This document shows positions 3,458 through 62,770 of a stretch of 64,000 nucleotides of DNA, piece after piece. A program made the translations under genes and the position numbers. Every line of letters begins with the position of its first letter. Position 1 is the first letter of the stretch. The notes beneath the pieces are model-generated. The model was not told where the DNA came from, ran no database searches, and saw nothing but the letters and a program-made list of their open reading frames with translations. Source of the stretch: Candidatus Iainarchaeum sp. (GTDB taxonomy: Archaea; Iainarchaeota; Iainarchaeia; Iainarchaeales; Iainarchaeaceae); NCBI GenBank assembly GCA_043812975.1, contig JBDRLP010000027.1:52111-116110 (forward strand). Direction: 5' to 3'.

Positions 3458-4497
3458 TTTGAATTCCTCATAATCAACAATAAGTCTTTTCCAAGTTTTT
3501 TCTTTTTCACAATTCGTATTTTTAAAGTCTTTTTGAGTTTAAACGCCTTTAAACCCTGTTTAATTTCTCTGTCAGCAATAATAAAAACCAATCTATCAAA
3601 CATTTTTTTTTCTAATAATTCTGAAGCAAGTCTGTTTCCTGGTTCAATCAAAACTGTTTTGATTCCAAAAGAATAAAGCTTTCCAAAAACATCATCCAAA
3701 TCAACCCCCTTCTTTGAATCTTTTACAGTAACAACCTTTGCACCTTTCTCAAGTAACTTTTTGACTTTATTTTTCGGAGCTTTTTTTGTACAGAAAATAA
3801 TTATAGTTCCTTTTTCAGAAAACAATTTAGAATTCAAAGGGATTCTTGCTTTCGAATCAAGCACAATCCGTACAGGATTTCTTCCCTTTCTCACACTCAA
3901 TTTTGGGTTATCTTTCAAAACAGTATTGATTCCAACAAGTATTGCATTATTTTGTGTCCGCAGTTTCTGAACAAATTCTAATGCTTGTTTTCCCGAAATT
4001 TTCTTTTTTTCCCTGTTTCCGAACGAAATAAATCCGTCATTGCTCATAGCAATTTTGATTGTTATTGTTGGGGTTTTAGTCTCACAATAATTTGTTATGT
4101 AGAAGTCATATAGTTTTTTAGCTTCTTTTTCATTTGTAATCTTTACAATAATTCCGTGTTTTCTTAATTCTTTAACTCCGTTTCCTGATTCTTTGTTTGG
4201 GTCTCGCCAAGCAATAAAAACACGCTTAATTCCGGCTTCGATAATAGCTTTTGTACAGGGGGATTGCTTTCCATAATGATTACAAGGTTCAAGTGTCACA
4301 AAAAGGTCTGCTCCTTTGGCCTTTATGCCTGCTTTTTCAAGTGAGGTAGTCTCAGCATGTTTACCCCCAAATTGCTCATGAAACCCTTTTCCAACTACTT
4401 TTCCTTCCTTAACAACAATCGCTCCAACCATTGGATTTGGCCATGCATCTTTTCCTTTTTTGGCTAGTTTAATAGCTTCTGGCATGAAATTTTTCAT
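3454..4497 (-). CDS. ribD: Riboflavin biosynthesis deaminase/reductase RibD (CMP/dCMP-type deaminase plus RibD C-terminal reductase domain)
   Basis: HAE...PCxxC zinc-deaminase motif (HAETTSL...LEPCNHYGKQSPC) followed by a reductase-like C-terminal domain. Confidence 0.7.
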   Translation of the reverse strand: MKNFMPEAIKLAKKGKDAWPNPMVGAIVVKEGKVVGKGFHEQFGGKHAETTSLEKAGIKAKGADLFVTLEPCNHYGKQSPCTKAIIEAGIKRVFIAWRDPNKESGNGVKELRKHGIIVKITNEKEAKKLYDFYITNYCETKTPTITIKIAMSNDGFISFGNREKKKISGKQALEFVQKLRTQNNAILVGINTVLKDNPKLSVRKGRNPVRIVLDSKARIPLNSKLFSEKGTIIIFCTKKAPKNKVKKLLEKGAKVVTVKDSKKGVDLDDVFGKLYSFGIKTVLIEPGNRLASELLEKKMFDRLVFIIADREIKQGLKAFKLKKTLKIRIVKKKKLGKDLLLIMRNSK

Positions 4498-5324
4498 TAA
4501 AATCCTCCGGCTAATAAAAGACCCAGTTCAGGAAAAGCAAATGCCAATAAAACCCCTAAAAAAATAAAAACACCAAATCTAGGAAGATTCCTGTAAACAA
4601 AAATTTCTTTAATTCCTTTTTTTTCAAGTTCTTTTTTTTCTTTTTCCCCATAAACTCCTTTGAAGCCTTTCCCAAATTTTTCCCTTTCTTTTTCACTCAT
4701 AAAATCAAATGCAATTATTTCATCTTCCTCAATGTCTTTCAATTTTATTTTTTTGAGAAAAAATTCTTTTCTGATTCCTTTTTCAAATGCAATAAAAAGA
4801 AGTCCAAAACTAAGAGGCAGTCCGAACATAAGCAAATAATTTATTGAAACAAAACCTGTTTTTGAAAGAACAAACAAATAAACAATCAAAATTACTAGGA
4901 AACCAAGTGCTCTCATTATCCCTTGTTTGTTATACTGAAAGTTAATGCCTTTTCTGAAATATTTTATCATGTAATAAGTTGAAAGAAAAATTATTGAAGT
5001 TAAAGCAGATAAAAGAACCGCTTGAATAATGAAAACGCTATTGTTGAAGAAAGGCAAAGCCAAAGCAATTCCTGTGTAAAGCTTTACATCGCCACCGCCG
5101 ATTTTTCCTGTGTAATAGAGCGCATAACCAATTCCGAAAACTAATAATCCTAAACCTATCCCTAAAAATTCTTGTTCAATAAGGTTCATGAACAAGCCAA
5201 AAACAATTAGCGGGATTGTTATCCAGTCATAAATGTAACCGGTTTTAAAATCAACATAACCCCCGACTCCCGCGGCAAGAAGTATCGCTAGTTGTCTTAG
5301 TAAAATAAGTTCCATGTTTATCAA
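4497..5324 (-). CDS. Archaeal type IV prepilin/preflagellin peptidase (A24 family, PibD/FlaK/EppA-like)
   Basis: Polytopic membrane protein with GGGDVKL motif (second catalytic Asp of the A24 GxGD peptidases) and an early Asp-containing loop; class III signal-peptide substrates are present in the same window. Confidence 0.65.
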   Translation of the reverse strand: MINMELILLRQLAILLAAGVGGYVDFKTGYIYDWITIPLIVFGLFMNLIEQEFLGIGLGLLVFGIGYALYYTGKIGGGDVKLYTGIALALPFFNNSVFIIQAVLLSALTSIIFLSTYYMIKYFRKGINFQYNKQGIMRALGFLVILIVYLFVLSKTGFVSINYLLMFGLPLSFGLLFIAFEKGIRKEFFLKKIKLKDIEEDEIIAFDFMSEKEREKFGKGFKGVYGEKEKKELEKKGIKEIFVYRNLPRFGVFIFLGVLLAFAFPELGLLLAGGF

Positions 5325-12089: not shown

Positions 12090-12407
12090 TCACTTTCTTG
12101 TAATGTTAATGTCCCTTCGAGTGTTCAATTGTCTTAAAATTTCCTTCAATTGTTCTTCGTTTAATTTTCCCTGCACCATTCCTTTTTGCATCAAACCCAT
12201 GATTGCTTGAAATGCTCTGGTGTAAAGTTCCTTGTTAACAAGCCTTACATTGCTCAGCCTTTGTTTTGCCTCCTCTGTTAAGAGGCTTTTCAAGACGCTT
12301 TGCATTTTGGCTTCCATTTCCAAGGATTGTTTTTCTTCCTCCTGTTGTTCTAAATATTTTTGTTTTAATTCTTCAAGCTTTTTTTCCTTCAGGTCTTGGC
12401 TCATGCT
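12090..12407 (-). CDS. PDCD5/TFAR19-like dsDNA-binding protein (DUF655 family); the ORF continues upstream to 12515 over the S19e tail
   Basis: EAKQRLSNVRLVNKELYTRAFQAIMGLMQKGMVQGKLNEEQLKEILRQL matches the archaeal PDCD5-like family; conserved cluster position. Confidence 0.7.
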   Translation of the reverse strand, partial: SMSQDLKEKKLEELKQKYLEQQEEEKQSLEMEAKMQSVLKSLLTEEAKQRLSNVRLVNKELYTRAFQAIMGLMQKGMVQGKLNEEQLKEILRQLNTRRDINITRK

Positions 12408-13002
12408 TTTCCCCTTTAGGTTGTTCTTTTTTTTCTTTTGGAGCTTCTTTAGCTTCCTGTTTTTTTTCTTTCTGCAATTCTGCATTTTCTTTCTGCACTT
12501 GAGCTTTCTTTTCATCTAATCTTTTTTTCATATTTGCTTCTATCCGATTCATTCTTTCCTGTTTTGCCATTAATTTTTTCTTATTGATTTCATCAACCAC
12601 TTTCTGAACATCTTTTGATTTTGCGTAAAGCAGTTTTTCTCCTAGGCCTGTTACTATTCTTCCTTTCTTATCTTTCTTAAGCAAACCTTGTTTTTCAAGC
12701 TGCTGTAAACATACTCTGATAACTTTTCCTGATGCTTTTCTTTTTGCTTCAGGTTTAACTCCTCTGTTTTTTCTTCCGCCGTAATAGGTTCTAAGGCTTC
12801 CTGTTCCTGTTGAACCGTGTTTATAAATCTGGTAGAGAATGCTTGCGTTTCTCACATAAAACCAATCAGGATTGTTTGGAGTTCTTTCTTTATGCGCCCC
12901 TGTTTTTATATAAGAGAATAGCTCTGGCTGTTGAATTTTGCCTTTTAGTTCTTTGGCAACTTCTTCTATAAGCATTCCTGCCGGCACGTCAAATATACCC
13001 AT
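12373..13002 (-). CDS. rps19e: 30S ribosomal protein S19e with a long Lys/Glu-rich C-terminal extension
   Basis: MGIFDVPAGMLIEEVAKELK...PELFSYIKTGAHKERTPNNPDWFYVRNASILYQIYKHG: S19e core; about 60 residues of K/E-rich tail. Confidence 0.85.
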   Translation of the reverse strand: MGIFDVPAGMLIEEVAKELKGKIQQPELFSYIKTGAHKERTPNNPDWFYVRNASILYQIYKHGSTGTGSLRTYYGGRKNRGVKPEAKRKASGKVIRVCLQQLEKQGLLKKDKKGRIVTGLGEKLLYAKSKDVQKVVDEINKKKLMAKQERMNRIEANMKKRLDEKKAQVQKENAELQKEKKQEAKEAPKEKKEQPKGEKHEPRPEGKKA

Positions 13003-13003
13003 C

Positions 13004-13063
13004 AGCGGACACCTCCGCTGGAGAGGTGTGCTGCCTTCGGCACCACGTACTCACTTACGTTCG
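13004..13063 (+). repeat. GC-rich two-hairpin structured element, family copy E (most divergent)
   Basis: cagcgg-acacct-ccgctg hairpin, gtgctgccttcggcac hairpin, gtactcacttacgttcg tail shared with the other copies. Confidence 0.4.
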
Positions 13064-13189
13064 TTTTTGTCATAATCTTCACCTTTTTCCCTTTTCAGGG
13101 TTGTTTTGTTTCAATCCGCTTTTGCGGATAAACTTCTAAAATCAGAAGTAACAATAATTCGCCTTGAAAACCTTTAAAAAGCTTGGTTT

Positions 13190-13816
13190 TTATTCCACTA
13201 CTGTCATTTTTACATTATCGAATATTGTCGAATCGGGCCCCCCATAGAATGTTGGAAATAACCAAACTCTTATGCAATTTGCTCCTGCCGGAACAAGGTA
13301 AGTGAACTCTTTATTTTGCCACGTATTATTGGTTGTGACTTCTCCAGCAGTCCCGGAGTTTCCTGCTCCGCAGCTTCTAACCATAACTAATGCTTCTGTT
13401 GGCCCTCCTACAGTTCCTTGTTTATATGAAAAGTTTACTTTTACTGTTTTTCCATATAGTTCATTCAAATCATAATCAGTCAAAATAATCGCCCCGCCTG
13501 ACGATATAGGAATAATTTCAACTGCATAGTTTCCGTATGGAGTATTAGTGCTCTGTACTGCCGTTACACCAGAGAGTAGGTCCCAGTAATCCGGGTAAGT
13601 TGTAAGCGTCCAAGTTTCGAAGCTTGAGTTTTTAAGAAAATTTGTTGAAACTCCTGCGGCTTCTCGTATTTTGTCGAATGCTGTTGTTGCTGATGTTGTG
13701 ACTTGTGTTTCTCCTGTTCCTGCTATGCTTAGTATTAGTGTGATTACGATTACGGCTACGAGTACTGCTCCGCCTATGAGTAGTAGGTATTCTAGTGCTC
13801 CTTGTGCTTTTTGCAT
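13190..13816 (-). CDS. Type IV pilin-like protein (class III signal peptide) with a C-terminal CBM/jelly-roll-like domain, paralog 1
   Basis: N-terminus MQKAQGALEYLLLIGGAVLVAVIVI... (archaeal prepilin K-A-Q-G/ALEYLL motif plus hydrophobic helix); C-terminal beta-rich domain with NSSFETW...W pattern reminiscent of CBM4/9. Confidence 0.7.
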   Translation of the reverse strand: MQKAQGALEYLLLIGGAVLVAVIVITLILSIAGTGETQVTTSATTAFDKIREAAGVSTNFLKNSSFETWTLTTYPDYWDLLSGVTAVQSTNTPYGNYAVEIIPISSGGAIILTDYDLNELYGKTVKVNFSYKQGTVGGPTEALVMVRSCGAGNSGTAGEVTTNNTWQNKEFTYLVPAGANCIRVWLFPTFYGGPDSTIFDNVKMTVVE

Positions 13817-13860
13817 TTGATTTAGAATTGGTTTTTGAATTATTTATTGGTTTGGGTTTT
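13655..13860. repeat. Conserved 5' block (promoter/5'UTR plus first 55 codons) of tandem pilin gene 1
   Basis: Near-identical nucleotide sequence to 14323..14525 and 15078..15280. Confidence 0.85.
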
Positions 13861-13861
13861 G

Positions 13862-14485
13862 TTATGTTTTAACTAATTTTATATCATCAAAATAAACAGT
13901 TCCGTTTGGAATTGTTGAACCTAAATTGTCCCACTTGATTTCCACAGTAATGGTTGCTCCTGCTGCTGTGCAGGTTACAGGCCCAGAACCATCAGTCCAT
14001 ACATTTGGAAAGCTGCTGGTCATCCAGTCCAGAGATCTGTAACCCTCAGTACAGGAATTACTAAAAGCAATGCGTGCACTTCCGCCTATAATATTTGGTT
14101 TGGTCCATCCTGATAAAGCATATGTATCTCCGGCTGTGACATTAAGTGTTTGGGATGCATAACCATAAGAAGAACCCGAACCATCATGAGTCATTTTCAA
14201 AGAACTGTTTCCAGTTCTGCGGTCATCTGTTGAAGAGGAAACACTTATTCCTCCTCCTGTAAGCCAACTACTCAATCCGCTTTCAAAGCTTCCGTTAGCC
14301 AAGAGATTATTGCTACCGCCGCCTGCGGCTTCTCGTATTTTGTCGAATGCTGTTGTTGCTGTTGTTGTTACTTGTGTTTCTCCTGTTCCTGCTATGCTTA
14401 GTATTAGTGTGATTACGATTACGGCTACGAGTACTGCTCCGCCGATTAAGAGTAGGTATTCTAGTGCTCCTTGTGCTTTTTGCAT
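13862..14485 (-). CDS. Type IV pilin-like protein with a C-terminal CBM-like domain, paralog 2
   Basis: Identical N-terminal 55 aa; C-terminal NGSFESG...W...YFDDIKL pattern typical of CBM_4_9-like beta-sandwich domains. Confidence 0.7.
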   Translation of the reverse strand: MQKAQGALEYLLLIGGAVLVAVIVITLILSIAGTGETQVTTTATTAFDKIREAAGGGSNNLLANGSFESGLSSWLTGGGISVSSSTDDRRTGNSSLKMTHDGSGSSYGYASQTLNVTAGDTYALSGWTKPNIIGGSARIAFSNSCTEGYRSLDWMTSSFPNVWTDGSGPVTCTAAGATITVEIKWDNLGSTIPNGTVYFDDIKLVKT

Positions 14486-14525
14486 TTACTTAGAATTGGT
14501 TTTTGGATTATTTATTGGTTTGGAT
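14323..14525. repeat. Conserved 5' block of tandem pilin gene 2
   Basis: Near-identical to the 5' blocks of the neighbouring paralogs. Confidence 0.85.
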
Positions 14526-15239
14526 TTAGGTCTCTGTTACTTTCACATTATCATAATCAATTGTTTGAGCACCGTAACTTAATAGTCCGATTCCGCCTGT
14601 AGCATGTCCTGTAAAATTATCTTCTCCTGCATAAACCCCGTTTACATATAATTTTACGTTTTGTCCTATTACTACCAGTTTTATGCGGTAAGTTGTTCCG
14701 TTAACCCAAGCCGCTCCGGTTATTGGGTCAGTAAGATCCACAATTTGACCAGTACTCCAATCGTAGAGCCTCCAATAATTCCAGGCATAATACCTGTACA
14801 ACAACATCGAGTTTGTGCTTCCTGAAGTATTAGAATTTCTGTAAACTGCGCCCATATAACTTGTTCCTGAAACTGGGGTAAAATCAAATTCAAAAGTATG
14901 ATCGCCATACGATCCTGTGAGATCCTGTGCAAATTTCCAACCGTCTGCTGTTGCAGCATGCCTGAACTTTCCTCCTGTAACACTCCAGATTATATTTGAC
15001 CCAGTAGTGGTCCAAACAGGATTAGATGTGTAATCCCCATCACTGAAATTATCAAAAAAACTTGCCGTTCCTCCCCCTGCGGCTTCTCGTATTTTGTCGA
15101 ATGCTGTTGTTGCTGATGTTGTGACTTGTGTTTCTCCTGTTCCTGCTATGCTTAGGATTAGTGTGATTACGATTACTGCTACGAGTACTGCTCCGCCTAT
15201 GAGTAGTAGGTATTCTAGTGCTCCTTGTGCTTTTTGCAT
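14526..15239 (-). CDS. Type IV pilin-like protein with a C-terminal concanavalin A-like lectin/LamG-like domain, paralog 3
   Basis: Identical N-terminal 55 aa; C-terminal domain resembles LamG/ConA-like lectin folds (YRIKLVVIGQNVKLYVNGVYAGED...IDYDNVKV). Confidence 0.7.
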   Translation of the reverse strand: MQKAQGALEYLLLIGGAVLVAVIVITLILSIAGTGETQVTTSATTAFDKIREAAGGGTASFFDNFSDGDYTSNPVWTTTGSNIIWSVTGGKFRHAATADGWKFAQDLTGSYGDHTFEFDFTPVSGTSYMGAVYRNSNTSGSTNSMLLYRYYAWNYWRLYDWSTGQIVDLTDPITGAAWVNGTTYRIKLVVIGQNVKLYVNGVYAGEDNFTGHATGGIGLLSYGAQTIDYDNVKVTET

Positions 15240-15280
15240 TTACTTAGAATTGGTTTTTGGATTATTTATTCTTTTGGGTT
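15078..15280. repeat. Conserved 5' block of tandem pilin gene 3
   Basis: Near-identical to the 5' blocks of paralogs 1 and 2. Confidence 0.85.
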
Positions 15281-15571
15281 TTATAAGTTTTTAATTTTCC
15301 TTTCAAATCCGCATTCTTTGCATTTTATTATTTTCATTGTTCCTGTTTTTTTTGTTTCAGAATTAGTTTTATTCAAAAAAGAATTGCATTTTTTGCAGTA
15401 TTTTGTTTTTAGTTCGTTTGGAAATCTTACTCGGGTTTTTTTCCCAATTTCGATTGCAAGGCAAATATATCTTTTGCTTCGTTTCGGGTGCTTTTTCAGT
15501 TCTTTTTCAGCTAGTTCAAACAACCTGTAAATTCGTTCCAATCCGATTTGCTGCATTTTTGTGTGTTTCAT
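15281..15571 (-). CDS. rnp4: Ribonuclease P protein component 4 (Rpp21/Rnp4), zinc ribbon
   Basis: ERIYRLFELAEK...KRYICLAIEIGKKTRVRFP...KYCKKCNSFL...IKCKECG: Rpp21 pattern with a CxxC...CxxC ribbon. Confidence 0.75.
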   Translation of the reverse strand: MKHTKMQQIGLERIYRLFELAEKELKKHPKRSKRYICLAIEIGKKTRVRFPNELKTKYCKKCNSFLNKTNSETKKTGTMKIIKCKECGFERKIKNL

Positions 15572-18281: not shown

Positions 18282-18387
18282 TGCGGGCGCCGAGAATCGA
18301 ACTCGGGCCACAACCTTATTGCAAATAATCTTACTTAGTTTCGATTCTTTTTGGCAAGGTTGCGTACTACCGCTATACTACGCCCGC
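18282..18387 (-). tRNA. tRNA-Gly (anticodon GCC) with a roughly 33-nt intron at the canonical 37/38 position
   Basis: Acceptor GCGGGCG/CGCCCGC, anticodon stem CAACC/GGUUG flanking UUGCCA + intron, T arm CCGAG-UUCGAUU-CUCGG; 105 nt in total. Confidence 0.8.
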
Positions 18388-34190: not shown

Positions 34191-35276
34191 ATGAATATGT
34201 CTAAAGTGATTGATTCTGCGGTTGAAACAATCCATTCAGGAGAACAAAGAAAAAAACTGGTTACTGAAAAGCTCACTCCGTTAAAATATAAGAAATTTTC
34301 TTCTCAGGAGCTCCCGGAAAAAGTATTGGTTCTTCCTGTTGAAAAGTGGATTCCCGATTGTATAATTGGAGGGGTGGATTCTGGTTTTGTTGCAAAGCGC
34401 CTTGCGTCAGTTGACCTTGTTCTGATTAGAGCTATGGGTGTCTGCTTTGATTACAAAAAGGGCATTGTGGATAAAGCCAATTATTATCCTGGTTATTTTC
34501 AGTTTCCGGAACCACATTTAAGCAATAATGCATTGGAAGAAGATGAGGCTGAGCAAAGCAAATCATTAATGCGTTTAAAAGAAGAAGTTAAAGCGTCAAA
34601 AAAATTAATTGAAGAGCATTCTCCGAAATATTTGTTTATTGATGGTTCTATTGTTCCGCAGTACCAAGACAAACCAAGAAAGGAATCTAAGTTAACTGAT
34701 AATTATATTAATATTATTCAGGAGTTTGAATCTTTTTATGAATTGGCTGAAAAAAATAATTGCACATTAATTTCTACGGTGGAAGATTCTAGAGGTTCTA
34801 GGTTCAGACAGATTATTCAGGATGAAATTCTTGAGAAGGAAAAAATTCTTGAAAAAGAAAAATTAGATGGTTTGTTTGATTCTTCTTTTTTGGATTATTT
34901 TTTGAACGTAGGAGAACGCTCAAGTTGTTTTACTTACACGAAAAATATTAAACAGCATCCTGTTCTTTCTGATTTCAATGAAAAGTGGAGCAACCATATT
35001 TTTGGTTTGTACATTAAACCTTCTAATTATGACAAACCCTTGAGGGTTGAATTCATCACTAAAGGGGGCATAAAAGAAAAAGCAGATGAAGTCGCAAAAG
35101 TCGCGTTTGCTTTAAGTTCATTACATCGCGAGTATGCTTATCCTTCAATTTTAATAGAGGCGGATATGCATGCTAAATTAAAGCAGGATGAGATTGAAAT
35201 TGTTTATAATAAAATAATGGATAAATTGGGTAATTCAATTAAACTAAAAATGAGGCGTGATAATAGGCCTTTTTAG
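34191..35276 (+). CDS. nurA: NurA 5'-3' nuclease (DSB end resection, HerA partner)
   Basis: NurA-domain motifs IGGVDSGF and YLFIDGSIVPQY; HerA is encoded 1.2 kb downstream. Confidence 0.75.
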   Translation: MNMSKVIDSAVETIHSGEQRKKLVTEKLTPLKYKKFSSQELPEKVLVLPVEKWIPDCIIGGVDSGFVAKRLASVDLVLIRAMGVCFDYKKGIVDKANYYPGYFQFPEPHLSNNALEEDEAEQSKSLMRLKEEVKASKKLIEEHSPKYLFIDGSIVPQYQDKPRKESKLTDNYINIIQEFESFYELAEKNNCTLISTVEDSRGSRFRQIIQDEILEKEKILEKEKLDGLFDSSFLDYFLNVGERSSCFTYTKNIKQHPVLSDFNEKWSNHIFGLYIKPSNYDKPLRVEFITKGGIKEKADEVAKVAFALSSLHREYAYPSILIEADMHAKLKQDEIEIVYNKIMDKLGNSIKLKMRRDNRPF

Positions 35277-36093: not shown

Positions 36094-36482
36094 GCAGATC
36101 GCCTTTTTATTATGAGCACTCCCCAAAACTATTTTCAGGAAGGATTTCTTTAATAAAATCCGATTTAGATTATTTGAATAGTAAAGGAATCAAAAAATTA
36201 GTCTTATTACAGGATGTGAATGATAATATATTGAATGCTCTTAGAACTGCCGGTTTTGCCGTTAAAGTTTTTCATTTAGGTACAAATCCCCCTTATGATT
36301 CAGAAAAATTAAGAGTGGTTTCTCGCGCTATGGCTTCTGCTAGAGTTTCTTTGCAAAAAAATGAAGGAGTGGCTGTTTTATGCAATCAAGGATTTCGTTC
36401 ATTTGACATTTGTAAAGAAATTCATAATCCTATTGACAGGAAAAGATTAACCAAAACTCGAATTAGGCGGTTGAGAAAATGA
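36090..36482 (+). CDS. Phosphatase-like domain protein (degenerate Cys-based P-loop)
   Basis: VAVLCNQGFRS resembles a CX4-5R phosphatase/rhodanese-like loop; translationally coupled between the Zn-ribbon gene and herA. Confidence 0.35.
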   Translation: MSRSPFYYEHSPKLFSGRISLIKSDLDYLNSKGIKKLVLLQDVNDNILNALRTAGFAVKVFHLGTNPPYDSEKLRVVSRAMASARVSLQKNEGVAVLCNQGFRSFDICKEIHNPIDRKRLTKTRIRRLRK

Positions 36483-39400
36483 CCAAAAACGAAGAAATAG
36501 GAACAGTAATAAGCACTCCAGATGGTCCTTCTCCGAGTGCTTTGGATTTTGTTGTTTATTCAGGAACACTTCACAGAGGAATGTTTGTTGAATTAGATTA
36601 TGCTGAAGGCACTCTTGTTGCTTTGGTTACTGATGTTGTTAAAACAAATCGTTATTTTGAAAGAGTTGAATCAGTAAAGGAATTCGAATCCTCAGGAACA
36701 AAATTATTTGAACAATTCCCTACTCATGAATGGGAATTCCTTTTAGCAAAAACAAGACCGCTTGGAGTTTACAATAAAGGGATGATTAAGCGTTCTAGTT
36801 TTCCTCCTTCTCCTGGGGCTAAAGTAAGGGTTGCTTCCAAAGAAACTCTTGAAAACTTTTTAGGTTTAGATTTGGAAAAAGGTTTAATGCTTGGAGAAAT
36901 TGAACATCACGATGTTTCAGTAAAATTGAACATGTCAAGATTATTCCAGAAACATTTAGCTATTTTGGCTATGAGTGGAGCAGGTAAGTGTACAAGTTTT
37001 GATGCTGAAATATTGCTTGAAAATAAGGTGCAGGTAAAAATTGGCGAATTAGTTGATTCAATATTAGAGAAAAATAAAAGAGTTGAAGATGGTGTTGAAT
37101 TTTGGGAAGGGGATTTGGATCTAAAAACTTATTCTTTTAATGGAGAAAAAATTGTTCCTGCGGAGGTCAAAGGAGTTTACCGAAGGAAGTCTCCGCATGA
37201 ATTGATTAAGGTCACAACTCGGAGTGGTAGGATTTTGAAGGTTACTCCTGAACACTTAATCCCTATGTTTAGTGGTTCTATTGAGTGGTTGCATGCAAAG
37301 GATTTGGTTAAAAAAAACTACTTGATTTTTCCGAGGATAAATTGGAGTGGTTCTGAGCAAGTAATGGATTTTTCTTCAGTTGTTGGCGAGAAAACCATAG
37401 TTCGCGGTGGTTTTGCGGAGTCAAAGAAGTCCGGTAAAAAGGTTAGGTTATTGCAGAGTGTTGACAAGGATTTTGTCAGATTGTTTGCTTATCTTTTGGC
37501 GGAAGGACATAATACTTGCGGTTCTCAAATTTGGTTTAGTAACGAAGATGAGTTTGTACGAAAGGATTTTTCGAAGCTGGTTTTTGATAAGTTTGGTTCT
37601 CGTGTCAGTGTAGCTAAACATGGGGGCGATTTGATTTTTTATAATAAGTTGTTGGCTCAGGCTCTTTCAAAGAAAGGGTTTACTAATTCTAGTTGGACTA
37701 AATTTGTTCCTCCTGAGATTTTGCGGAGCAGACGTGAAGTTTTGCTTTCTTTTCTTTCTGTTTTTATTGATTGTGACGGGCATATAAACAAAAGCAAGTC
37801 TGAGTTGGAGATAACTTTAGCGAGTAAAAAACTTATTTTTGGTATTGAAGAAATCCTCACAAAGCTGGGTATTGTTTCTTTTAGAGGGATCAAAAAGACT
37901 GATGGCAAGGTATATCAAAGATTGTTTGTTAGAGGGGCGGAATTGAAAAAGCTGAAGGATCTCGATCTTTTGATTGGTTATAAAAAGAAGGCTCTTGAGA
38001 AATGGATTGCCTCTAAAAACAACCCTAATGTTGATGTTGTTCCCAATTTACATTCTCATTTGTTTGAGTTGTTGTCTTTGTTGAGAATGCCTCAGCCACA
38101 GGCTGAGTCGTCAGGCATTAACAATTATCTTTACCGCCGAGATAACCCTTCTAGGGAAAATTTGAGTGTTTTAATTTCTATTTTTGAGCGAAGATGTGTT
38201 GAGGTAGAAAAGGCAACTGAGGACGCTTATACTCTTTATAAAAGCATTCCTAAAGTTAGCGAAGAAGATGCTTTAGTGGTTGTTCAGGAAGCTTATTCCA
38301 GTGGTTTGGATTTTAATAAAATCTCTTCAGGAAGTGGTGTTTCAAAAACTACTGCAAGAAGGGTTGTTAGAGGTATCACTTCTCCAAAAAGTAGTGTTTT
38401 TTCTTTGGCAAAAAACATTTCTCAGTCTAGGTATGCTGAATTTGGATTCGTTGAAAACTTCGACGGGAATTCAGCTTTAACTTCTATTAAGGAAATTTGT
38501 GAGAGGCTTGGTCATGAGACACAGACTTTTTGTGTTTCAAATGGGGTTTACAAGAATTTTCTATATTCTCATTCAAAAGATAGGGGTGTTGCTGACCATT
38601 CTATTGTACTCAAGTTGTCAGAGTCTCTTTGTGAAATTGCGAGAAAATCTGAGAAAAATTTGGGCTTAGCTAAGGGAATTATTTTTGATTTGAAGAAAGC
38701 GATTGATTTGAATGCTTTTTTTGACGAGATTGTGAAAGTTGAAAAAGTTCCTTCTGAAAACGAGTTTGTTTATGATCTTTCTGTTGATAATTCTAGTTTT
38801 GTTGCTAATAATTTGTTGATTCATAATAGCTACTTAACTTCCGTTCTCTTTGAAGAACTTTTAGAAAGAAAAAAAGAAGACGGAAGACTGGCTTTGATTG
38901 TAATGGATACTCATGGAGAATATAGGAATTTTGCTGAACCAGTAAAAGATTCAAAGAGTAAAGATTTTTCATCCAAAACAAGATTTGTTAAAGCAAGCGA
39001 AATTAGCATCGGTGTTCCTAAGCTTTCTATCGGAATGCTTTCCATTATGATTCCTGGATTATCAGGGCCGCAGAAGAGAGACCTTGCGAGAGTTCTTGAA
39101 AAATTAAGAAGAGAAATGAAAGACGGTTTAGGCCCCTATGATTTTGGTGCTGTAAAATCTGAAATATTTAAGGATGAGGAAATGAAAGAGTCAACAAAAT
39201 TGGCTTTGACTGGATGGATAATTTCATTAGAACAGTTGAAACTTTTCGGAAAAACTGATAATCCAAGTATTAATGATCTTGTAAAACCAGGACAACTTAC
39301 AATTGTTGATTTGAGTGATGTCATTGAAATGAAAAAGAAACAGATTATTGTTTCTTATTTTGCTTCGAAACTTTTCTTTGAAAGGCGCCAAAAAAGAATT

Positions 39401-39859
39401 GCTCCTTTTTCTCTTGTTTTGGAAGAAGCACATCAGTATTGCCCTGAAGGCACTTCAAAAGAAGGGGCTATTTCCAGAGGTATTATTGAAACAATTGCAA
39501 GGGAAGGAAGAAAGTTCGGTGCTTCAATTTGTTTAATTTCTCAGAGGCCGATTAATCTTTCAACAACTGCATTAAGTCAATGCGGCACTCATATAATTCT
39601 CAGAGTAACAAATCCTTATGATCTTGATCACATTGGTAAAAGCAGTGAAGGTCTTGACAGGCGTTCGCTGGACATGATTACTTCTCTAAGAACGGGAGAA
39701 GCTCTTCTTGTTGGTGAAGCCGTAAATTACCCTACTTTTTTCAAGGTTCGAAAAAGGACTTCTCAGGATTCTATTCATGAAAAGTCTCTGGAGGAGGCTT
39801 CTGTTGAGTTTGAGGAAATAAAGGAAGCATCACAGAAGGATATTGAAGATTTGATGTAA
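36479..39859 (+). CDS. herA: HerA-type hexameric DNA translocase/helicase, interrupted in its Walker A motif by a 613-aa intein
   Basis: HAS-barrel N-terminus; Walker A AILAMSGAGK|C...intein...HN|S; Walker B LVLEEAH; arginine-finger region; the extein is about 513 aa. Confidence 0.85.
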   Translation: MTKNEEIGTVISTPDGPSPSALDFVVYSGTLHRGMFVELDYAEGTLVALVTDVVKTNRYFERVESVKEFESSGTKLFEQFPTHEWEFLLAKTRPLGVYNKGMIKRSSFPPSPGAKVRVASKETLENFLGLDLEKGLMLGEIEHHDVSVKLNMSRLFQKHLAILAMSGAGKCTSFDAEILLENKVQVKIGELVDSILEKNKRVEDGVEFWEGDLDLKTYSFNGEKIVPAEVKGVYRRKSPHELIKVTTRSGRILKVTPEHLIPMFSGSIEWLHAKDLVKKNYLIFPRINWSGSEQVMDFSSVVGEKTIVRGGFAESKKSGKKVRLLQSVDKDFVRLFAYLLAEGHNTCGSQIWFSNEDEFVRKDFSKLVFDKFGSRVSVAKHGGDLIFYNKLLAQALSKKGFTNSSWTKFVPPEILRSRREVLLSFLSVFIDCDGHINKSKSELEITLASKKLIFGIEEILTKLGIVSFRGIKKTDGKVYQRLFVRGAELKKLKDLDLLIGYKKKALEKWIASKNNPNVDVVPNLHSHLFELLSLLRMPQPQAESSGINNYLYRRDNPSRENLSVLISIFERRCVEVEKATEDAYTLYKSIPKVSEEDALVVVQEAYSSGLDFNKISSGSGVSKTTARRVVRGITSPKSSVFSLAKNISQSRYAEFGFVENFDGNSALTSIKEICERLGHETQTFCVSNGVYKNFLYSHSKDRGVADHSIVLKLSESLCEIARKSEKNLGLAKGIIFDLKKAIDLNAFFDEIVKVEKVPSENEFVYDLSVDNSSFVANNLLIHNSYLTSVLFEELLERKKEDGRLALIVMDTHGEYRNFAEPVKDSKSKDFSSKTRFVKASEISIGVPKLSIGMLSIMIPGLSGPQKRDLARVLEKLRREMKDGLGPYDFGAVKSEIFKDEEMKESTKLALTGWIISLEQLKLFGKTDNPSINDLVKPGQLTIVDLSDVIEMKKKQIIVSYFASKLFFERRQKRIAPFSLVLEEAHQYCPEGTSKEGAISRGIIETIAREGRKFGASICLISQRPINLSTTALSQCGTHIILRVTNPYDLDHIGKSSEGLDRRSLDMITSLRTGEALLVGEAVNYPTFFKVRKRTSQDSIHEKSLEEASVEFEEIKEASQKDIEDLM
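36989..38827 (+). mobile_element. Intein (Hint domain plus LAGLIDADG homing endonuclease) inside herA
   Basis: Starts with Cys right after GAGK, ends ...VANNLLIHN followed by Ser; LAGLIDADG-like blocks LFAYLLAEGHN and LSVFIDCDGHIN. Confidence 0.8.
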
Positions 39860-42889: not shown

Positions 42890-43082
42890 ATTGGGTAAAG
42901 CAGTCCCTCAGAATATTAAAAGTAAGGCAAATATACTTTTGCAAACTTATCCTAATGATGTGCCAAATGATTTTGATTCTATTAAGAAATTTATTGATAC
43001 TTTTAAAATGCCGATGAGTAAATCACAGAGAAATCTTGTTGCTGGTTTTTTGGCTAGAAAAAAGTCTCAGTTAAAAGCCTAG
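42867..43082 (+). CDS. rps17e: 30S ribosomal protein S17e (may start at TTG 42891)
   Basis: GKAVPQNIKSKANILLQTYPNDVPNDFDSIKKFIDTF...SKSQRNLVAGFLARK matches S17e. Confidence 0.7.
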   Translation: MKKLRWIRLGKAVPQNIKSKANILLQTYPNDVPNDFDSIKKFIDTFKMPMSKSQRNLVAGFLARKKSQLKA

Positions 43083-48290: not shown

Positions 48291-49868
48291 GTGGTTTTAA
48301 TGGCATTTCAGTTTGCGGAAAAAAAAGGAAACAAGATTGATTCTTATGGTCAAACGGTTATCCATGAAGGATTCCCGTTTTTCTTTTATGATGTAAAAGA
48401 ACCAAAGTTTAATGAAGAAGAAAATATCATGAAGGAATCTTTGATTAATCTTATTATGGGCCGCTGGAGTTTTGATGAGGTTCAGGGGCAGCTGGAAAAA
48501 CTTTTTTCAAAACAGTTTATGGAGCAGTTCAGGGAAAAAATAATCAAGCCGATAACTTATAGCGGTGCGATGGAATATTTGTTGCCAACTGATGATTATA
48601 ATACTTTAAAATTAACTCTCATAACTTTGTTTAAGGAATTTTTACCGGTTGTAAAAAATCATTCTTTATTAGCAGACAAAATCCTTGGGGACTCTATCGG
48701 TTACGGGAAAATAAATCCTTTTGTTATGGATGAAAGTTTAGAAGAAGTCATGGTTAATTCTTATGACAAGAACGTTTTTGTTTTTCACAAAAAGTACGGC
48801 CATTGTAAAACTAATATAGATTTTTCAAACAAAAAAGCCCTTGATAATTTGCTGCAAAAAATTGCTCACACTATAGGAAAAAAGTTTGATGCTGACAATC
48901 CTTTATTGGACGCACGTCTTCCTGACGGTAACAGAGCTAATGCAACTTTTGCTTATGTAACTCCATTTGGCCCAAGCCTTACAATCAGGAAATTTTCCAG
49001 TGTTCCTCTTAGTATTGTTGATTTAATTTCCAATAATACGATTTCAAGTGAATTGGCAGCATTTCTTTGGGTTATGGTTGAGGGTATGGGTGTTGAGCCA
49101 ATGAATCTTATTGTTACCGGCGGTTCTGGTTCAGGAAAAACAACTACTTTGAATGCTTTGACTGCTTTTGTAAGATACCCTGAAAGAATTATTTCCATTG
49201 AAGATACGCTTGAACTGCGTTTGTTGGGGCGGCAAAATTGGGTTCAGATGGAATCCAGGCCAGCAATGAAAGGACAGGAAGGTGTTACCATGGATGACTT
49301 GTTAAAAAATGCTATGAGAATGAGGCCTGATCGCATTATTGTTGGGGAAGTAAGAGGAAAAGAAGCAGAAACTCTCTTTGTTGCAATGGACACCGGCCAT
49401 AAAGGATCAATGGGAACATTGCATAGTAATTCTGCCAAAGAAATGCTTCTAAGATTAAAATCAGAACCTATGGGTGTTCCTGATTCTTTAATTCCTTTAC
49501 TTAATCTTATTATTGTTCAGTACAGGCTTTATGTTAAAGGGAAAGGCATCGAGAGAAGAGTAATATCTGTTACTGAGGTAAGTTCTATGGATAATCATGC
49601 TTTGCTCAGTAATGTGTATGAGTGGGACCGCGGAACTGATTTTGTGAAAAGAACCGATGTTCCGATGAAACTTATGGAGACCTTATCTGAAAAAACATTA
49701 AAAACTAAAAAAGAGGTTGAAATGGAGATTAATGTTAGAAAAAGGATTCTTGAATGGATGATGAAGAACGATATCCATTTCCAGCCTGAAGTAGAAGTGG
49801 TTGTTCAGCAGTATTATTATAATCCTGAAGCTCTTTTAGAAAAAGTTCTTGCTGAAGATTCTCAATAA
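48291..49868 (+). CDS. Type II/IV secretion-system ATPase (FlaI/PilB/TadA-like) - putative pilus assembly ATPase
   Basis: Walker A LIVTGGSGSGKTTTLNAL, Asp box, Walker B, His box (GHKGSMGTLHSNSAKE). Confidence 0.8.
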   Translation: MVLMAFQFAEKKGNKIDSYGQTVIHEGFPFFFYDVKEPKFNEEENIMKESLINLIMGRWSFDEVQGQLEKLFSKQFMEQFREKIIKPITYSGAMEYLLPTDDYNTLKLTLITLFKEFLPVVKNHSLLADKILGDSIGYGKINPFVMDESLEEVMVNSYDKNVFVFHKKYGHCKTNIDFSNKKALDNLLQKIAHTIGKKFDADNPLLDARLPDGNRANATFAYVTPFGPSLTIRKFSSVPLSIVDLISNNTISSELAAFLWVMVEGMGVEPMNLIVTGGSGSGKTTTLNALTAFVRYPERIISIEDTLELRLLGRQNWVQMESRPAMKGQEGVTMDDLLKNAMRMRPDRIIVGEVRGKEAETLFVAMDTGHKGSMGTLHSNSAKEMLLRLKSEPMGVPDSLIPLLNLIIVQYRLYVKGKGIERRVISVTEVSSMDNHALLSNVYEWDRGTDFVKRTDVPMKLMETLSEKTLKTKKEVEMEINVRKRILEWMMKNDIHFQPEVEVVVQQYYYNPEALLEKVLAEDSQ

Positions 49869-50502: not shown

Positions 50503-51354
50503 TTGTTTTATTTATTCTTCTGCTGCAATTTTATTTTGGGGGAATTAATTTTGTTTAAACCTATTATTGTATTAAGCATGCTTTTATTGCTAGCCTCATT
50601 GGCTTTTGCCGAGGTTAATGTTCTTTATCCTGTGGAAGCAACCCTTCAAAATGGTAATACTATTCAGGCTGGCTCAGTAGGCCCCAATCAGGTTTTTGAA
50701 TTGATTTTTTCAGATAATTCAGGTCATGGTTTTGAGTGGGACACTGTTACAGTTAATGAAGCTTCACTTCCGGCAGGTTGGACAATTGTTTCCCAAAATA
50801 ATACTGACACTTCTTTAATAGTAAATATCGGCGTTCCTAAAAACGCTCAGCCAAACTTTTATGTTATTGAGCTTTCATTATCAAATAGTAATAATCCTGC
50901 TGTGAAAGATTCAGTTAGTGTTAGTGTTGTTGTAAAACAAAATCTGTTAGATGTTTCTTTTATAAGGCCTTCAATAGAAAATGTTTCTGTTGTCGGTGAA
51001 TCTGTTTTTTACAAAGGGGTTGTTTCTAATTCCTCAATAGCTCCGCAAAAAATTGTTTTTTCTTCCGATGTTCCTTCTAATTGGTTTGAAAGTATTGTTT
51101 TTGAAGCAGATCCGAACAGCATGGAAGAAATCGAACTTGAACTAAATCCTAAGTCTTATGGAAAACATTATTTTTCTTTTCAAGTATTGGATGAGGAAAG
51201 CACAATAATTAAGAGTTATTCTTCAGAATTAAACGTACACCCTACATTGAAGGGAAAGTTCAGTTCTGCATTCTCTGGTTTTCCTTTCTTTACTTTCAGT
51301 TTGGTGCCATTCCAATTATTAGCTTCTTTTATTTCCTTAATTTTGCCTAATTAA
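50503..51354 (+). CDS. Secreted beta-rich surface protein with a C-terminal membrane anchor, hypothetical
   Basis: Signal peptide, Ser/Val/Asn-rich beta-strand domains, C-terminal hydrophobic segment. Confidence 0.4.
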   Translation: MFYLFFCCNFILGELILFKPIIVLSMLLLLASLAFAEVNVLYPVEATLQNGNTIQAGSVGPNQVFELIFSDNSGHGFEWDTVTVNEASLPAGWTIVSQNNTDTSLIVNIGVPKNAQPNFYVIELSLSNSNNPAVKDSVSVSVVVKQNLLDVSFIRPSIENVSVVGESVFYKGVVSNSSIAPQKIVFSSDVPSNWFESIVFEADPNSMEEIELELNPKSYGKHYFSFQVLDEESTIIKSYSSELNVHPTLKGKFSSAFSGFPFFTFSLVPFQLLASFISLILPN

Positions 51355-61036: not shown

Positions 61037-61549
61037 TCAGGATTCTTCAATTATTAATGAAACCCTATCTACTACTTTGCAAGTATCAGGCAGCCCAGGT
61101 ACTACTTCCCCTTGCTTATAAAATGCCACTGTTCTTGTTTCTATAATATCGGTTCCATCCAAAGAAACAGAACATTCAAGAACTCCTGTAACAAGAACTT
61201 GCCTGATAGCAGGCACAGTAATTACCGGGCCTGTCGTAAATATACAGTCAACAGAGGATTTTGAATTAAAATTAGTTATTATTGCTTGTAAATAATTTCT
61301 TATGTTATCTGCATTAAACTGATCACAACTCGGTGCACTTAAATAATCAAAATAATTTTTGGATGTTGCTTTATCAAGAATCCAGATTAAGTTATTTGCT
61401 TTTACATTAACCTCCCTTGCAGCTTCCATTTTTATGAAAGCGTCATTGTTACTTGTAATGTTTAATGATGCGTTTGCAACAAAAATTAGTAATGCGATTG
61501 CTCCAACCGCAACCCATGCTGAAATAAATCCTTTCATGTTGCTCTGCAT
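61037..61549 (-). CDS. Pilin-like protein with class III signal peptide (minor pilin 4)
   Basis: MQSNMKG/FISAWVAVGAIALLIF N-terminus. Confidence 0.55.
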   Translation of the reverse strand: MQSNMKGFISAWVAVGAIALLIFVANASLNITSNNDAFIKMEAAREVNVKANNLIWILDKATSKNYFDYLSAPSCDQFNADNIRNYLQAIITNFNSKSSVDCIFTTGPVITVPAIRQVLVTGVLECSVSLDGTDIIETRTVAFYKQGEVVPGLPDTCKVVDRVSLIIEES

Positions 61550-61830
61550 TCTTTCACCTTGCTTTTAACAGTTGGAGTAGTTCCACTAAACTCAAATAAT
61601 TCTTTGCAGTTTACTGTTGGTCCTGCATTTTCATTATTAGATGTGCTGAGAGTTTCATTAGTATAAAAAACAATTAATGCATTATCTGTTGCTTTTGCAC
61701 TCAACAGAACTTGTGGCGCTTCTCCGTTTGAAGCAAGATTAGAAATCGCCAATCCTGAAAAAAGAGCTATGATTACAACCATTGCCAGAATTGCATCTGT
61801 ACTGAATATTACTCCTTTCATGTCAACCAC
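61534..61830 (-). CDS. Pilin-like protein with class III signal peptide (minor pilin 3)
   Basis: MVDMKG/VIFSTDAILAMVVIIALF N-terminus; overlaps the neighbouring genes. Confidence 0.55.
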   Translation of the reverse strand: MVDMKGVIFSTDAILAMVVIIALFSGLAISNLASNGEAPQVLLSAKATDNALIVFYTNETLSTSNNENAGPTVNCKELFEFSGTTPTVKSKVKECRAT

Positions 61831-62384
61831 ACCTTTATTGTTAATTCATTTACTGTTGGACTGTAAGGGCAACTACCCATTCCACTAATACAATTATCAA
61901 ATCCTGCTTTTTCAATATTATCTCCGCTTAAAAATTTTCTTTTAATAACCAGAACATTTTCAGTATTTTCCAGAGCGTCAGTTTGGCATGCACTTGTCAT
62001 TTTTCGCGGCAATGTAGAAGGATTACTTTCATCAACAAGAGTTACGTAACAACCAATGTTGTCTGGTATCATTAATTCTGCCTTTGTAGTATCTTCAAAA
62101 AGATTTAATGGGTCATTTGGATTAACACAACCCAATAATTCATAACCCTGATCACTAAACTTTACAGTTCCAGCATTACTTGGATCACAACTATTTTCTC
62201 CAATGTAATTGTTTCCTGCATTAATTGCTATTGCAGTTAATTCATTTCTCAATCTTGCTTCTTTGATTTCATAAGAGCTTAATTCATAAACATTCAGAAG
62301 CATTCCTATTGCTAATACTGCTAATGTCATTGCTATTAGGAAATCAAGCGAAAATATTTGTCCTTTTGTTTTTTGTTTTTCCAT
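61818..62384 (-). CDS. Pilin-like protein with class III signal peptide (minor pilin 2); the ORF opens at 62420
   Basis: MEKQKTKGQ/IFSLDFLIAMTLAV: KGQ-type prepilin cleavage motif. Confidence 0.6.
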   Translation of the reverse strand: MEKQKTKGQIFSLDFLIAMTLAVLAIGMLLNVYELSSYEIKEARLRNELTAIAINAGNNYIGENSCDPSNAGTVKFSDQGYELLGCVNPNDPLNLFEDTTKAELMIPDNIGCYVTLVDESNPSTLPRKMTSACQTDALENTENVLVIKRKFLSGDNIEKAGFDNCISGMGSCPYSPTVNELTIKVWLT

Positions 62385-62386
62385 TA

Positions 62387-62770
62387 TCATACCTTCGTAA
62401 TCGTTATTATATCTCCACATTTGATTCCTGGATTTGGAGTAAATGTAACCCCAATTAAATCAAGTCCGGTATAACTGCTTTCTATTCCTGAATCAGGATT
62501 CCGAATAGTAATGCTTCCATTTGCTGAAGTATCAATTACCACTTCACAATCAATCGGACTTGGAATAGTATACTGCACCTTAACACCATAAGCCTTTACT
62601 GCGCCTATTGTGCTGTAAACATCCAGTCGTATCGAATCTAGTGCATTTTGAGTTTCTGATTCCTGGATTGTTGCATTGAATCCTTCCATGTAATTCTGCA
62701 TTAAAATCAGGAACAAAACCATCGCAAATATGGCTAGCAGAAGATCTATACTTAATTGTCCTTTTTTCAT
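62387..62770 (-). CDS. Pilin-like protein with class III signal peptide (minor pilin 1)
   Basis: MKKGQ/LSIDLLLAIFAMVLF: KGQ-type prepilin motif. Confidence 0.6.
   Translation of the reverse strand: MKKGQLSIDLLLAIFAMVLFLILMQNYMEGFNATIQESETQNALDSIRLDVYSTIGAVKAYGVKVQYTIPSPIDCEVVIDTSANGSITIRNPDSGIESSYTGLDLIGVTFTPNPGIKCGDIITITKV

Follow-up and report, generated by a model that had tools for sequence, protein, structure and literature searches.

The 64,000-nt stretch of Candidatus Iainarchaeum sp. DNA analysed here (GenBank assembly GCA_043812975.1, contig JBDRLP010000027.1, positions 52,111–116,110 of the forward strand; hereafter the window) carries a tandem array of three genes, A, B and C, which probably encode modular type IV pilins. 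In each product, a nearly identical N-terminal module would insert its helix into a filament of short pilins and show a head of carbohydrate-binding module (CBM) or lectin type, and the chromosomal slot that holds the genes would diversify by module-mediated recombination. The array itself is real and chance is excluded as its source; cleavage of the signal, incorporation into a pilus, glycan binding and host attachment are what we infer for its products. In mechanistic terms, a prepilin peptidase of family A24 would cut MQKA/QGALEY, and the freed helix, which is identical over 23 residues to that of a short pilin, would let the fusions enter the short-pilin filament, either at its tip or interspersed along its shaft. 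A flexible linker would hold the glycan-binding heads outward, where they could bind the polysaccharide or glycoconjugate surfaces of partner cells, extracellular polymeric substances (EPS) or particulate substrate. Through homologous recombination between modules that are nearly identical, heads would be shuffled, duplicated and deleted, giving each strain its own binding repertoire.

Three genes with one promoter-like element and one pilin module

The array occupies a slot between the genes for the RNase P subunit Rpr2 and ribosomal protein S19e (Table 1). A preliminary description of this DNA had reported three genes with a near-identical 5′ block, and this is indeed what is found: the three open reading frames (ORFs) are present, and a repeat search identifies a single direct-repeat family in the array, with three copies of 212 nt that display 86–94% identity to the reference copy. 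In the alignment, each copy comprises ~47 nt upstream of the gene and its first 55 codons, and similarity ends sharply at codon 56. Within the first 165 coding nt, the module copies differ from one another at 3–9 positions, almost all of them synonymous (three of three between A and C, six of seven between A and B, and eight of nine between B and C), and the paralogous modules of the window are 95–98% identical at the nucleotide level. The heads of A, B and C give no BLASTP match to one another, and tblastn detects no further copy of the module within the 64-kb window. In the proteins, the module (residues 1–55) consists of a four-residue leader (MQKA), Gln+1, Glu+5, a hydrophobic helix of ~27 residues, a spacer rich in Thr and Ser and a short amphipathic helix. 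Beyond it, a Gly-rich linker leads to a β-sandwich head of 150–180 aa, which is a CBM_4_9, a CBM-like or a ConA-like domain; this is the layout of a modular pilin in the sense of Raynaud et al. 2021, in which a short linker joins the pilin module to a functional domain of wider, not pilus-specific, use. NCBI labels the product of gene B (P0122) a ‘carbohydrate binding domain-containing protein’, and the three proteins carry either this label or that of a class III signal peptide-containing protein; the NCBI protein that corresponds to gene C is 100% identical to it over the full length.

Table 1. Features of the array, its borders and the pilus-related genes of the window

Feature	Positions	Strand	Remarks
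Gene A	13190..13816	-	208 aa; pilin module and CBM4/22-like β-sandwich head; last gene of the array, adjoins S19e
Gene B	13862..14485	-	207 aa; pilin module and CBM_4_9 head
Gene C	14526..15239	-	237 aa; pilin module and ConA-like/DUF1080-type head; first gene of the array, adjoins Rpr2
Repeat copy 1	13647..13858	-	promoter-like element and gene A module; 86% to reference copy
Repeat copy 2	14316..14527	-	promoter-like element and gene B module; reference copy; begins at gene C stop codon
Repeat copy 3	15070..15281	-	promoter-like element and 55-codon gene C module; 94% to reference copy
TATA-like box of gene A	13839..13848	-	read from sequence
TATA-like box of gene B	14507..14516	-	read from sequence
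TATA-like box of gene C	15261..15270	-	AATAAATAAT; 22–31 nt 5′ of ATG; read from sequence
Oligo-T tracts	13167..13180	-	T5 and T4 on the transcribed strand; directly after gene A stop codon
S19e, right border of slot	12373..13002	-	ribosomal protein; PF01090, 147.5 bits; synteny
Rpr2, left border of slot	15281..15571	-	RNase P subunit; PF04032, 41.5 bits
Peptidase_A24	4497..5324	-	prepilin/class III signal peptidase family; candidate processing enzyme; PF01478, 45.2 bits (cutoff 26.5)
PilB/FlaI-family (T2SSE) ATPase	48291..49868	+	secretion ATPase; PF00437, 150.9 bits; no adjacent platform gene
Four overlapping small ORFs	61037..62770	-	127, 200, 98 and 170 aa; class III-like N-termini of another sequence family

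An assembler might have joined strain variants through the 212-nt repeat, so that each real genome would hold a single slot gene. The single-gene slots of the close relatives L084 and L087 (L numbers denote loci of other genomes) would agree with this, as would the length of the repeat, similar to a typical assembly k-mer or read length, and the fact that the window array is known from one metagenome-assembled genome (MAG) only. Such an artefact is very unlikely, however. The C–B and B–A junctions, each running from a stop codon through a promoter-like spacer of 40–45 nt into a module, are unique sequences that are not expected in a single-gene genome, and the modules and their upstream elements can be told apart by 3–9 single-nucleotide differences and by differing spacers. 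Moreover, two-gene arrays of the same design have been assembled independently, and identically, in different samples (L001/L002 and L003/L086/L089).

Class III signal and N-terminal helix

All three proteins match the Pfam family PF04021 (Class_IIIsignal, UPF0333) above its gathering score (A 26.0, B 25.9 and C 26.0 bits; cutoff 23.7), which bears out the earlier proposal of a class III, type IV prepilin-type N-terminus with a hydrophobic helix. The predicted cleavage site lies between MQKA and QGALEYLLLIGGAVLVAVIVITLILSI (MQKA/QGALEY), with Lys at −2, Ala at −1 and the leader ahead of the hydrophobic domain. Class III signals are characterized by Gly, Ala or Ser at −1, a charge at −2 and a site before the hydrophobic domain (PMC4371748). 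In homologues, position −1 is occupied by Gly, as in MQKG/QGALEY of P0173 and KKG/QGALEY of P0002, and among 81 long members of the family no columns other than Gln+1 and Glu+5 are invariant. The N-terminal helix is predicted to span residues 5–32 in the structural model of A and 4–30 in that of C, and in both models a low-confidence linker of ~25–45 residues separates it from the head. No match to the bacterial prepilin N-methylation family IPR012902 is found among the Pfam results at E ≤ 1 for the three proteins. Since their N-terminus matches PF04021 and not IPR012902, they are an archaeal analogue that lies outside the published bacterial census of modular pilins.

C-terminal heads

Two of the heads are β-sandwiches of the CBM4/9/22 type and the third is probably of the ConA-like/DUF1080 type. 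The preliminary description had distinguished two CBM4/9-like heads and one head of the ConA/LamG superfamily. The first assignment holds in full for head B, which scores 35.6 bits against PF02018 (CBM_4_9; cutoff 25.9); in addition, a profile containing B retrieves CBM4-2 xylanase modules from the PDB at E = 1e-9. For head A it holds in part: by fold, the domain is a β-jelly-roll CBM and can be called CBM4/22-like, but its match to PF02018 is weak (16.6 bits, below the cutoff; E = 0.01). A cluster look-up for head A-like domains in giant proteins returned one named match, a bacterial BspA-family surface protein, which is not enough to trace the origin of the heads.

The assignment of head C is supported by a match to PF06439 (DUF1080/3-keto-disaccharide hydrolase, ConA-like clan) that extends over 162 residues and profile positions 13–186 of 187 (E = 8.6e-6), with a score of 26.4 bits that is just under the cutoff of 26.8. 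PF06439 is also listed in the annotation precomputed for the NCBI protein identical to that of gene C. Furthermore, the low-confidence model of head C (predicted local distance difference test, pLDDT, 54) matches only galectin, GH16, DUF1080 and PilC-lectin folds, which we take as supportive only. Hydrolases occur among the PF06439 and GH16-like folds, and head C could thus be an enzyme and not a lectin. A profile search of the PDB with alignment A4 was rejected as independent evidence for head C, since the LamG_3 proteins in the alignment govern its result.

Cassette gain, loss and replacement at the Rpr2–S19e slot

The slot can be followed in related genomes, where it holds one to three modular class III genes down to ~55–60% S19e identity. 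Rpr2 is also the neighbour in L001, L003, L006, L009, L011, L037, L084 and L085, and arrays comparable to this one occupy the same syntenic position in assemblies of independent origin (JGI, ENA and NCBI). Two genes are present in L001/L002 (245 and 207 aa), L003/L007 (240 and 217 aa) and L085 (the second A-like), and a single gene in L084 (the orthologue of A), L087, L006 (357 aa), L009 (Candidatus Iainarchaeum andersonii; 384 aa, LamG_3 head), L011 (474 aa) and L037 (177 aa).

The idea that the 5′ module is a substrate for recombination finds support in these genomes, which display copy numbers of 1–3, junctions in the module, replacement of heads and concerted evolution. Together, these results show that cassettes are exchanged as whole units. 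L084, 83–89% identical to the window in nucleotide sequence, has the order Rpr2–A′–S19e: its alignment takes in Rpr2 and the start of module C and continues directly with module A, head A and S19e. Genes C and B are thus absent from its slot, and the junction lies inside the module. The same location of the junction is seen when L087, with Rpr2–(module + H3)–S19e, is compared with L003, with Rpr2–H1′–H3–S19e. Within a genome the modules are homogenized, that is, they undergo concerted evolution: the paralogous modules of L003 are 99% identical at the nucleotide level, as against ~90% to the positional orthologues in L001, and the spacer region, which shows 53–58% identity between lineages, is nevertheless covered by the 95–98% identity of the window modules.

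Comparison of L001 with L003 bears on the origin of the heads. In the flanks, S19e is 96.8% identical in amino acid sequence with a synonymous divergence (dS) of 0.16, and Rpr2 and L31e have dS of 0.20 and 0.05, respectively, whereas the slot-1 heads have dS of 2.26 and a nonsynonymous divergence (dN) of 0.36 (ω 0.16) and the slot-2 heads are unrelated. A dS about tenfold that of the flanks, combined with purifying selection, indicates that deeply diverged alleles were imported, as opposed to fast evolution in place. Plain positive selection was rejected as the cause of head divergence in favour of replacement by recombination, given ω of 0.16–0.47 and the excess of head dS. Between head A and its L084 orthologue, selection is relaxed or mildly diversifying (ω 0.47, compared with 0.15 for Rpr2).

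A broader and rather doubtful proposal is that the slot acts as a lineage-wide ‘adhesin cassette exchanger’ of the Iainarchaeota, in which a portable unit of promoter and module captures, duplicates, deletes and trades unrelated heads between strains through homologous recombination. The set of heads on the pilus would then decide to which partner cells or glycan surfaces a strain can attach, and the A/C-rich codon usage of the module (see below) would be part of the design for expression or recombination. If true, the slot would be a mechanism that generates diversity of surface specificity in DPANN archaea.

Two further loci are of note. At L085:2664–3404, the gene with the A-like head lacks its 3′ end and continues into a fragment of S19e in inverted orientation, which represents either a real inversion or a chimeric short metagenomic contig. 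L024:972–7587, closely upstream of Rpr2 and S19e, carries three class III genes in tandem, with products of 468, 1,100 and 531 aa. Between the second and the third gene, the first 150 nt of the modules match at 100%; the locus repeats the design of the array with giant proteins.

Probable link to a short-pilin filament

A short pilin of 88 aa, P0002 (MILDKKG/QGALEYLLLIGGAVLVAVIVITL), is encoded outside the window and its predicted mature N-terminus is identical to those of A, B and C over 23 residues; it appears to lie on the same contig as the array. The species representative closest to the window is MAG P6-4 (S19e 87%), in which the equivalent short pilin is part of an operon with the order T2SSE, two T2SSF, pilin, Peptidase_A24 with Arc_PepC, and further class III proteins, and Candidatus Iainarchaeum andersonii has the same pattern of ORFs. 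The mature N-terminus of the P6-4 operon pilin is identical to that of the slot gene at 23 of 24 residues, at a DNA identity of 76%. Selection is thus keeping the helices identical, as co-assembly would require. Complete operons of this Epd-like (‘system 1’) kind in relatives lie at L010:1764–8416, which was Pfam-scanned, and at L016:1758–8451, which has matching ORF sizes.

The existence of this short pilin is relevant to another explanation, namely, that the β-sandwich is simply the globular pilin domain and that each of the three proteins polymerizes into a distinct pilus, like PilA1–PilA6 of Haloferax. The array would then supply different filaments to suit different conditions, and not adhesive tips for one common filament. 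Archaeal pilins and archaellins normally combine an N-terminal helix with a β-sandwich of similar size, which would suit such alternative major pilins. So would the separate promoter-like element of each gene and the precedent of the six Haloferax pilins, which have a near-identical H-domain and each form a pilus with differing adhesion (PMC4371748). We nevertheless consider this explanation improbable. In the models, the low-confidence linker leaves the head not packed on the helix; head B is by sequence a bona fide CBM_4_9, a module borrowed from carbohydrate-active proteins; and a helix-only short pilin encoded in a pilus operon and having the same N-terminus is a more natural major subunit.

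The window itself contains, as reported previously, genes for a prepilin peptidase and a FlaI-like ATPase, identified by their matches to PF01478 and PF00437. The peptidase (275 aa) has multiple transmembrane segments and a GGGD motif. It gives no match to Arc_PepC at E ≤ 1 and so may serve a different set of substrates. The ATPase, which scores 295.7 bits against the NCBIfam model FlaI (cutoff 550), has genes for a CCA-adding enzyme and TYW3 as neighbours. As the short pilin of the relatives lies in its own operon with its own A24 peptidase, the window peptidase and ATPase are probably not the dedicated machinery. Downstream of the ATPase by 635 nt, with TYW3 between them on the opposite strand, a gene at 50503–51354 (+) encodes a 283-aa protein without a Pfam match that has a hydrophobic signal at its N-terminus and a transmembrane segment at its C-terminus and is possibly anchored at the surface.

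The four small ORFs near the end of the window had been described as minor pilins. Their N-termini (MKKGQLSIDLLLA.., ..TKGQIFSLDFLIA.., MKGVIFSTDAILA.. and MKGFISAWVAV..) do show KGQ or MKG ahead of a hydrophobic stretch. On this ground they may plausibly be further class III/pilin-like proteins; none of the four has a Pfam or NCBIfam match. They are flanked by genes for asparagine synthase and histidine phosphatase, with no pilus genes.

Class III proteins across the phylum and possible display without a filament

A scan for the module in species-representative genomes yielded 78 loci, nearly all of them in Iainarchaeum/Diapherotrites-type MAGs, consistent with the initial view of the source as a DPANN organism. 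The loci retrieved contain 152 complete class III ORFs, often in tandem, which comprise 59 of up to 100 aa, 61 of 100–200 aa and 32 longer ones of up to 1,100 aa. The notion that fusions are rare, derived from a search with the 57-aa module that gave only proteins of 41–100 aa, was discarded, since full-length and exhaustive searches and the genome survey showed many long ones. In a Pfam analysis of 81 long class III proteins, most heads are without a match; LamG_3 is found in five proteins and CBM_4_9 in three, with single cases of Ig/PKD, CarboxypepD_reg, macroglobulin-like and BD-FAE/α/β-hydrolase domains. Neighbouring modules are at least 92% identical in a minority of arrays (L003, L018, L024, L036, L075, L001 and the window).

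Several observations weigh against modular pilins. Besides the sub-threshold scores of heads A and C, the low confidence of the head C model and the possible enzymatic nature of that head, they include the fact that the array is known from one assembly. Under the FlaFind rule, a hydrophobic residue usually follows the archaeal class III cut, and Gly at +2 departs from this. No T2SSF platform protein is found among the window ORFs scanned, the dedicated pilus operon lies outside the window, the array is not adjacent to pilus assembly genes, and the placement of P0002 on the contig of the array is weak. Moreover, with esterase-like, Ig/PKD, macroglobulin-like and up to 1,100-aa proteins among its carriers in the phylum, the class III signal would fit a general surface-display signal equally well.

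Display of this kind could dispense with a filament: the class III signal would serve as export signal and membrane anchor, in a bindosome-like manner, and the CBM or lectin would capture glycans for feeding or organize the envelope. In Sulfolobus, proteins that bind sugars and have class III signals form a non-pilus surface structure (PMC4371748), and many unrelated domains of Iainarchaeota proteins, BD-FAE/α/β hydrolases among them, are joined to the same N-terminus; the position of the array away from pilus assembly genes is also in line with this. Still, we regard filament-free display as unlikely. The heads are not substrate-binding proteins of ATP-binding cassette (ABC) transporters, A, B and C giving no match to such a family in Pfam or NCBIfam, and the locus, with Rpr2 and S19e as neighbours, is devoid of transporter genes. 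The window ATPase scores 147 bits on BasE against a cutoff of 1000. Furthermore, an anchor needs no helix identical to that of an operon pilin, whereas 23 of 24 residues are kept here across 24% nucleotide divergence, and the invariant Gln+1 and Glu+5 are hallmarks of filament assembly.

Predicted expression signals and codon usage

Each of the three genes has its own promoter-like element, with the TATA-like box AATAAATAAT located 22–31 nt (about 26) before the ATG in every case; the array genes of L001/L003 have the same element upstream, as TTAAATAA. Because the distance from box to ATG corresponds to the archaeal distance from TATA to transcription start, the mRNAs would be leaderless or near-leaderless. 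Oligo-T is a known termination signal of archaeal RNA polymerase, and the tracts directly after gene A are likely, judging by their sequence, to be the terminator of the array. T-runs are missing from the C–B and B–A spacers of 40–45 nt. Given that these spacers are short and lack T-runs, read-through from gene C in combination with internal starts is possible. A scan for sigma-70 promoters and hairpin terminators returned no more sites than in shuffled sequences and was set aside as inapplicable to archaea.

The 187 nt between gene A and S19e (13003–13189) are non-coding and ~83% conserved in L084, and a part of them is found again between the class III gene pair of L085. A permissive Rfam scan of this spacer gave only sub-threshold, chance-level matches. 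It could be a leader or promoter of S19e, the terminator of the array or an unannotated small RNA.

The modules (13652–13816, 14321–14485 and 15075–15239) have an unusual codon composition, with A in 75% of third positions, C in 22%, G in 2% and T in 0%. For comparison, third-position A + C amounts to 54 ± 9% (maximum 76%) at the 5′ ends of other window ORFs and to ~50% in the heads of the same genes. The L001/L003 modules share the bias towards A and C, which neither the L006 module nor the pilin of the P6-4 operon displays. The predicted folding energy of module mRNA, −15 to −19 kcal/mol versus −28 ± 6 for 5′ regions of the window, places it among the least structured, and compared with shuffles of the same composition it is no less structured (z +0.9). 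The bias might reflect extreme selection on translation, a need to avoid 5′ structure on leaderless mRNA or a DNA feature linked to recombination.

Relation to known systems

Modular pilins have been catalogued in bacteria, with >1,200 proteins in 264 architectures that include the glycan-binding ConA-like module of PilC (PMC8179133, PMC9934059). Streptococcus sanguinis PilB, with a vWA module, and PilC, with an Ig-like and a ConA-like lectin module, provide the precedent for A, B and C. Bacterial modular pilins have the IPR012902 motif, keep a small globular pilin domain and sit in pil operons, and the census is a bacterial one (PMC8179133), the word ‘archaea’ being absent from that paper. 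Unlike them, the window proteins have the archaeal PF04021 signal and an essentially helix-only module, and their genes form a tandem array of promoter and module in a head-swapping slot between housekeeping genes.

Among archaea, PilA1–PilA6 of Haloferax volcanii resemble the array in having a conserved hydrophobic N-terminus, C-terminal parts and adhesion that differ, and a location away from assembly genes (PMC4371748). In contrast to the array heads, their C-terminal parts are small and without recognizable lectin or CBM, and each can be a major pilin. To our knowledge, the Haloferax genes do not form a tandem cassette array, and exchange of heads at a fixed locus has not been described for them. 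The Sulfolobus bindosome likewise comprises archaeal carbohydrate binders with a prepilin-type signal that depend on a PibD-type peptidase for surface localization (PMC4371748); its components, however, are large substrate-binding proteins of ABC transporters encoded beside transporter genes and handled by a dedicated Bas system, whereas the array heads are of CBM/lectin type. The Epd system of Methanococcus maripaludis, ‘system 1’ of the type IV filaments (TFF), corresponds to what is seen in the relatives, with short PF04021-type pilins with Gln+1, two platform genes and a dedicated A24 peptidase; the L010 operon is built exactly so. TFF system 1 has been reported in methanogens and DPANN (bioRxiv 10.64898/2026.04.22.720090). 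CBM or lectin fusions are not described for Epd pilins, and that 2026 survey of archaeal filaments makes no mention of modular, lectin or carbohydrate-binding pilins. A full-text literature search combining class III signal peptide, carbohydrate-binding module and archaea gave one paper, which is unrelated.

The pilE/pilS system of Neisseria is similar in that the exposed pilin C-terminus is varied by homologous recombination while the N-terminus is conserved. The pilS copies are silent and lack both promoter and N-terminus; what they donate is segments of a single homologous domain. By contrast, none of the three copies in the array lacks a promoter-like element, start codon or complete module, and their heads have different folds; in addition, the variation documented at the slot is between genomes and not within a clone.

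Another reduced-genome lineage, the ultrasmall, episymbiotic Saccharibacteria of the candidate phyla radiation (CPR), offers a parallel: type IV pili are implicated in how these cells recognize partners and attach to them (PMC9894109, PMC11623550), and in this bacterial system the role has been shown experimentally. Iainarchaeota have no known host, and it has been proposed that they live freely (PMC10936187). The assumption in the preliminary description that the organism depends on cell–cell contact is not supported, Iainarchaeota/Diapherotrites being the DPANN lineage reported as possibly free-living (PMC10936187, citing Youssef 2015). Attachment to a host is possible but unsupported, and polysaccharide particles, EPS or biofilm matrix are targets of at least equal likelihood.

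The individual domains are already labelled by automated annotation, and the nearest archaeal precedents are Haloferax PilA1–PilA6 and the Sulfolobus bindosome. The apparent novelty lies in how three things are combined: a helix-only archaeal pilin module on CBM or lectin heads, duplication of the promoter together with the module, and a fixed slot with strain-level turnover of cassettes. It would extend to archaea the principle of the modular pilin, so far bacterial, and offers an example of domain grafting in which one unit of promoter and stem carries at least 10 different heads at one chromosomal address. Surface and partner recognition in DPANN archaea, almost none of which are cultured, is largely unknown, and the locus supplies concrete small secreted candidates. 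Should the heads determine specificity for partners or substrates, the slot would serve as a useful marker of strain-level ecology in Iainarchaeota and as a handle for finding hosts or substrates in enrichments.

Other features of the window

At the Rfam gathering threshold, only four tRNAs are found in the window. One of them, at 18282–18387 (-), spans 106 nt, compared with 73–75 nt for the other three, and therefore probably contains an intron. At 36479–39859 (+), the gene for a HerA-type (DUF87) ATPase is interrupted by an intein with a LAGLIDADG endonuclease; beside it, at 34191–35276 and 43071–45089, are genes for NurA and an SMC/Rad50-like ATPase, which together with it make up a DNA end-resection cluster.

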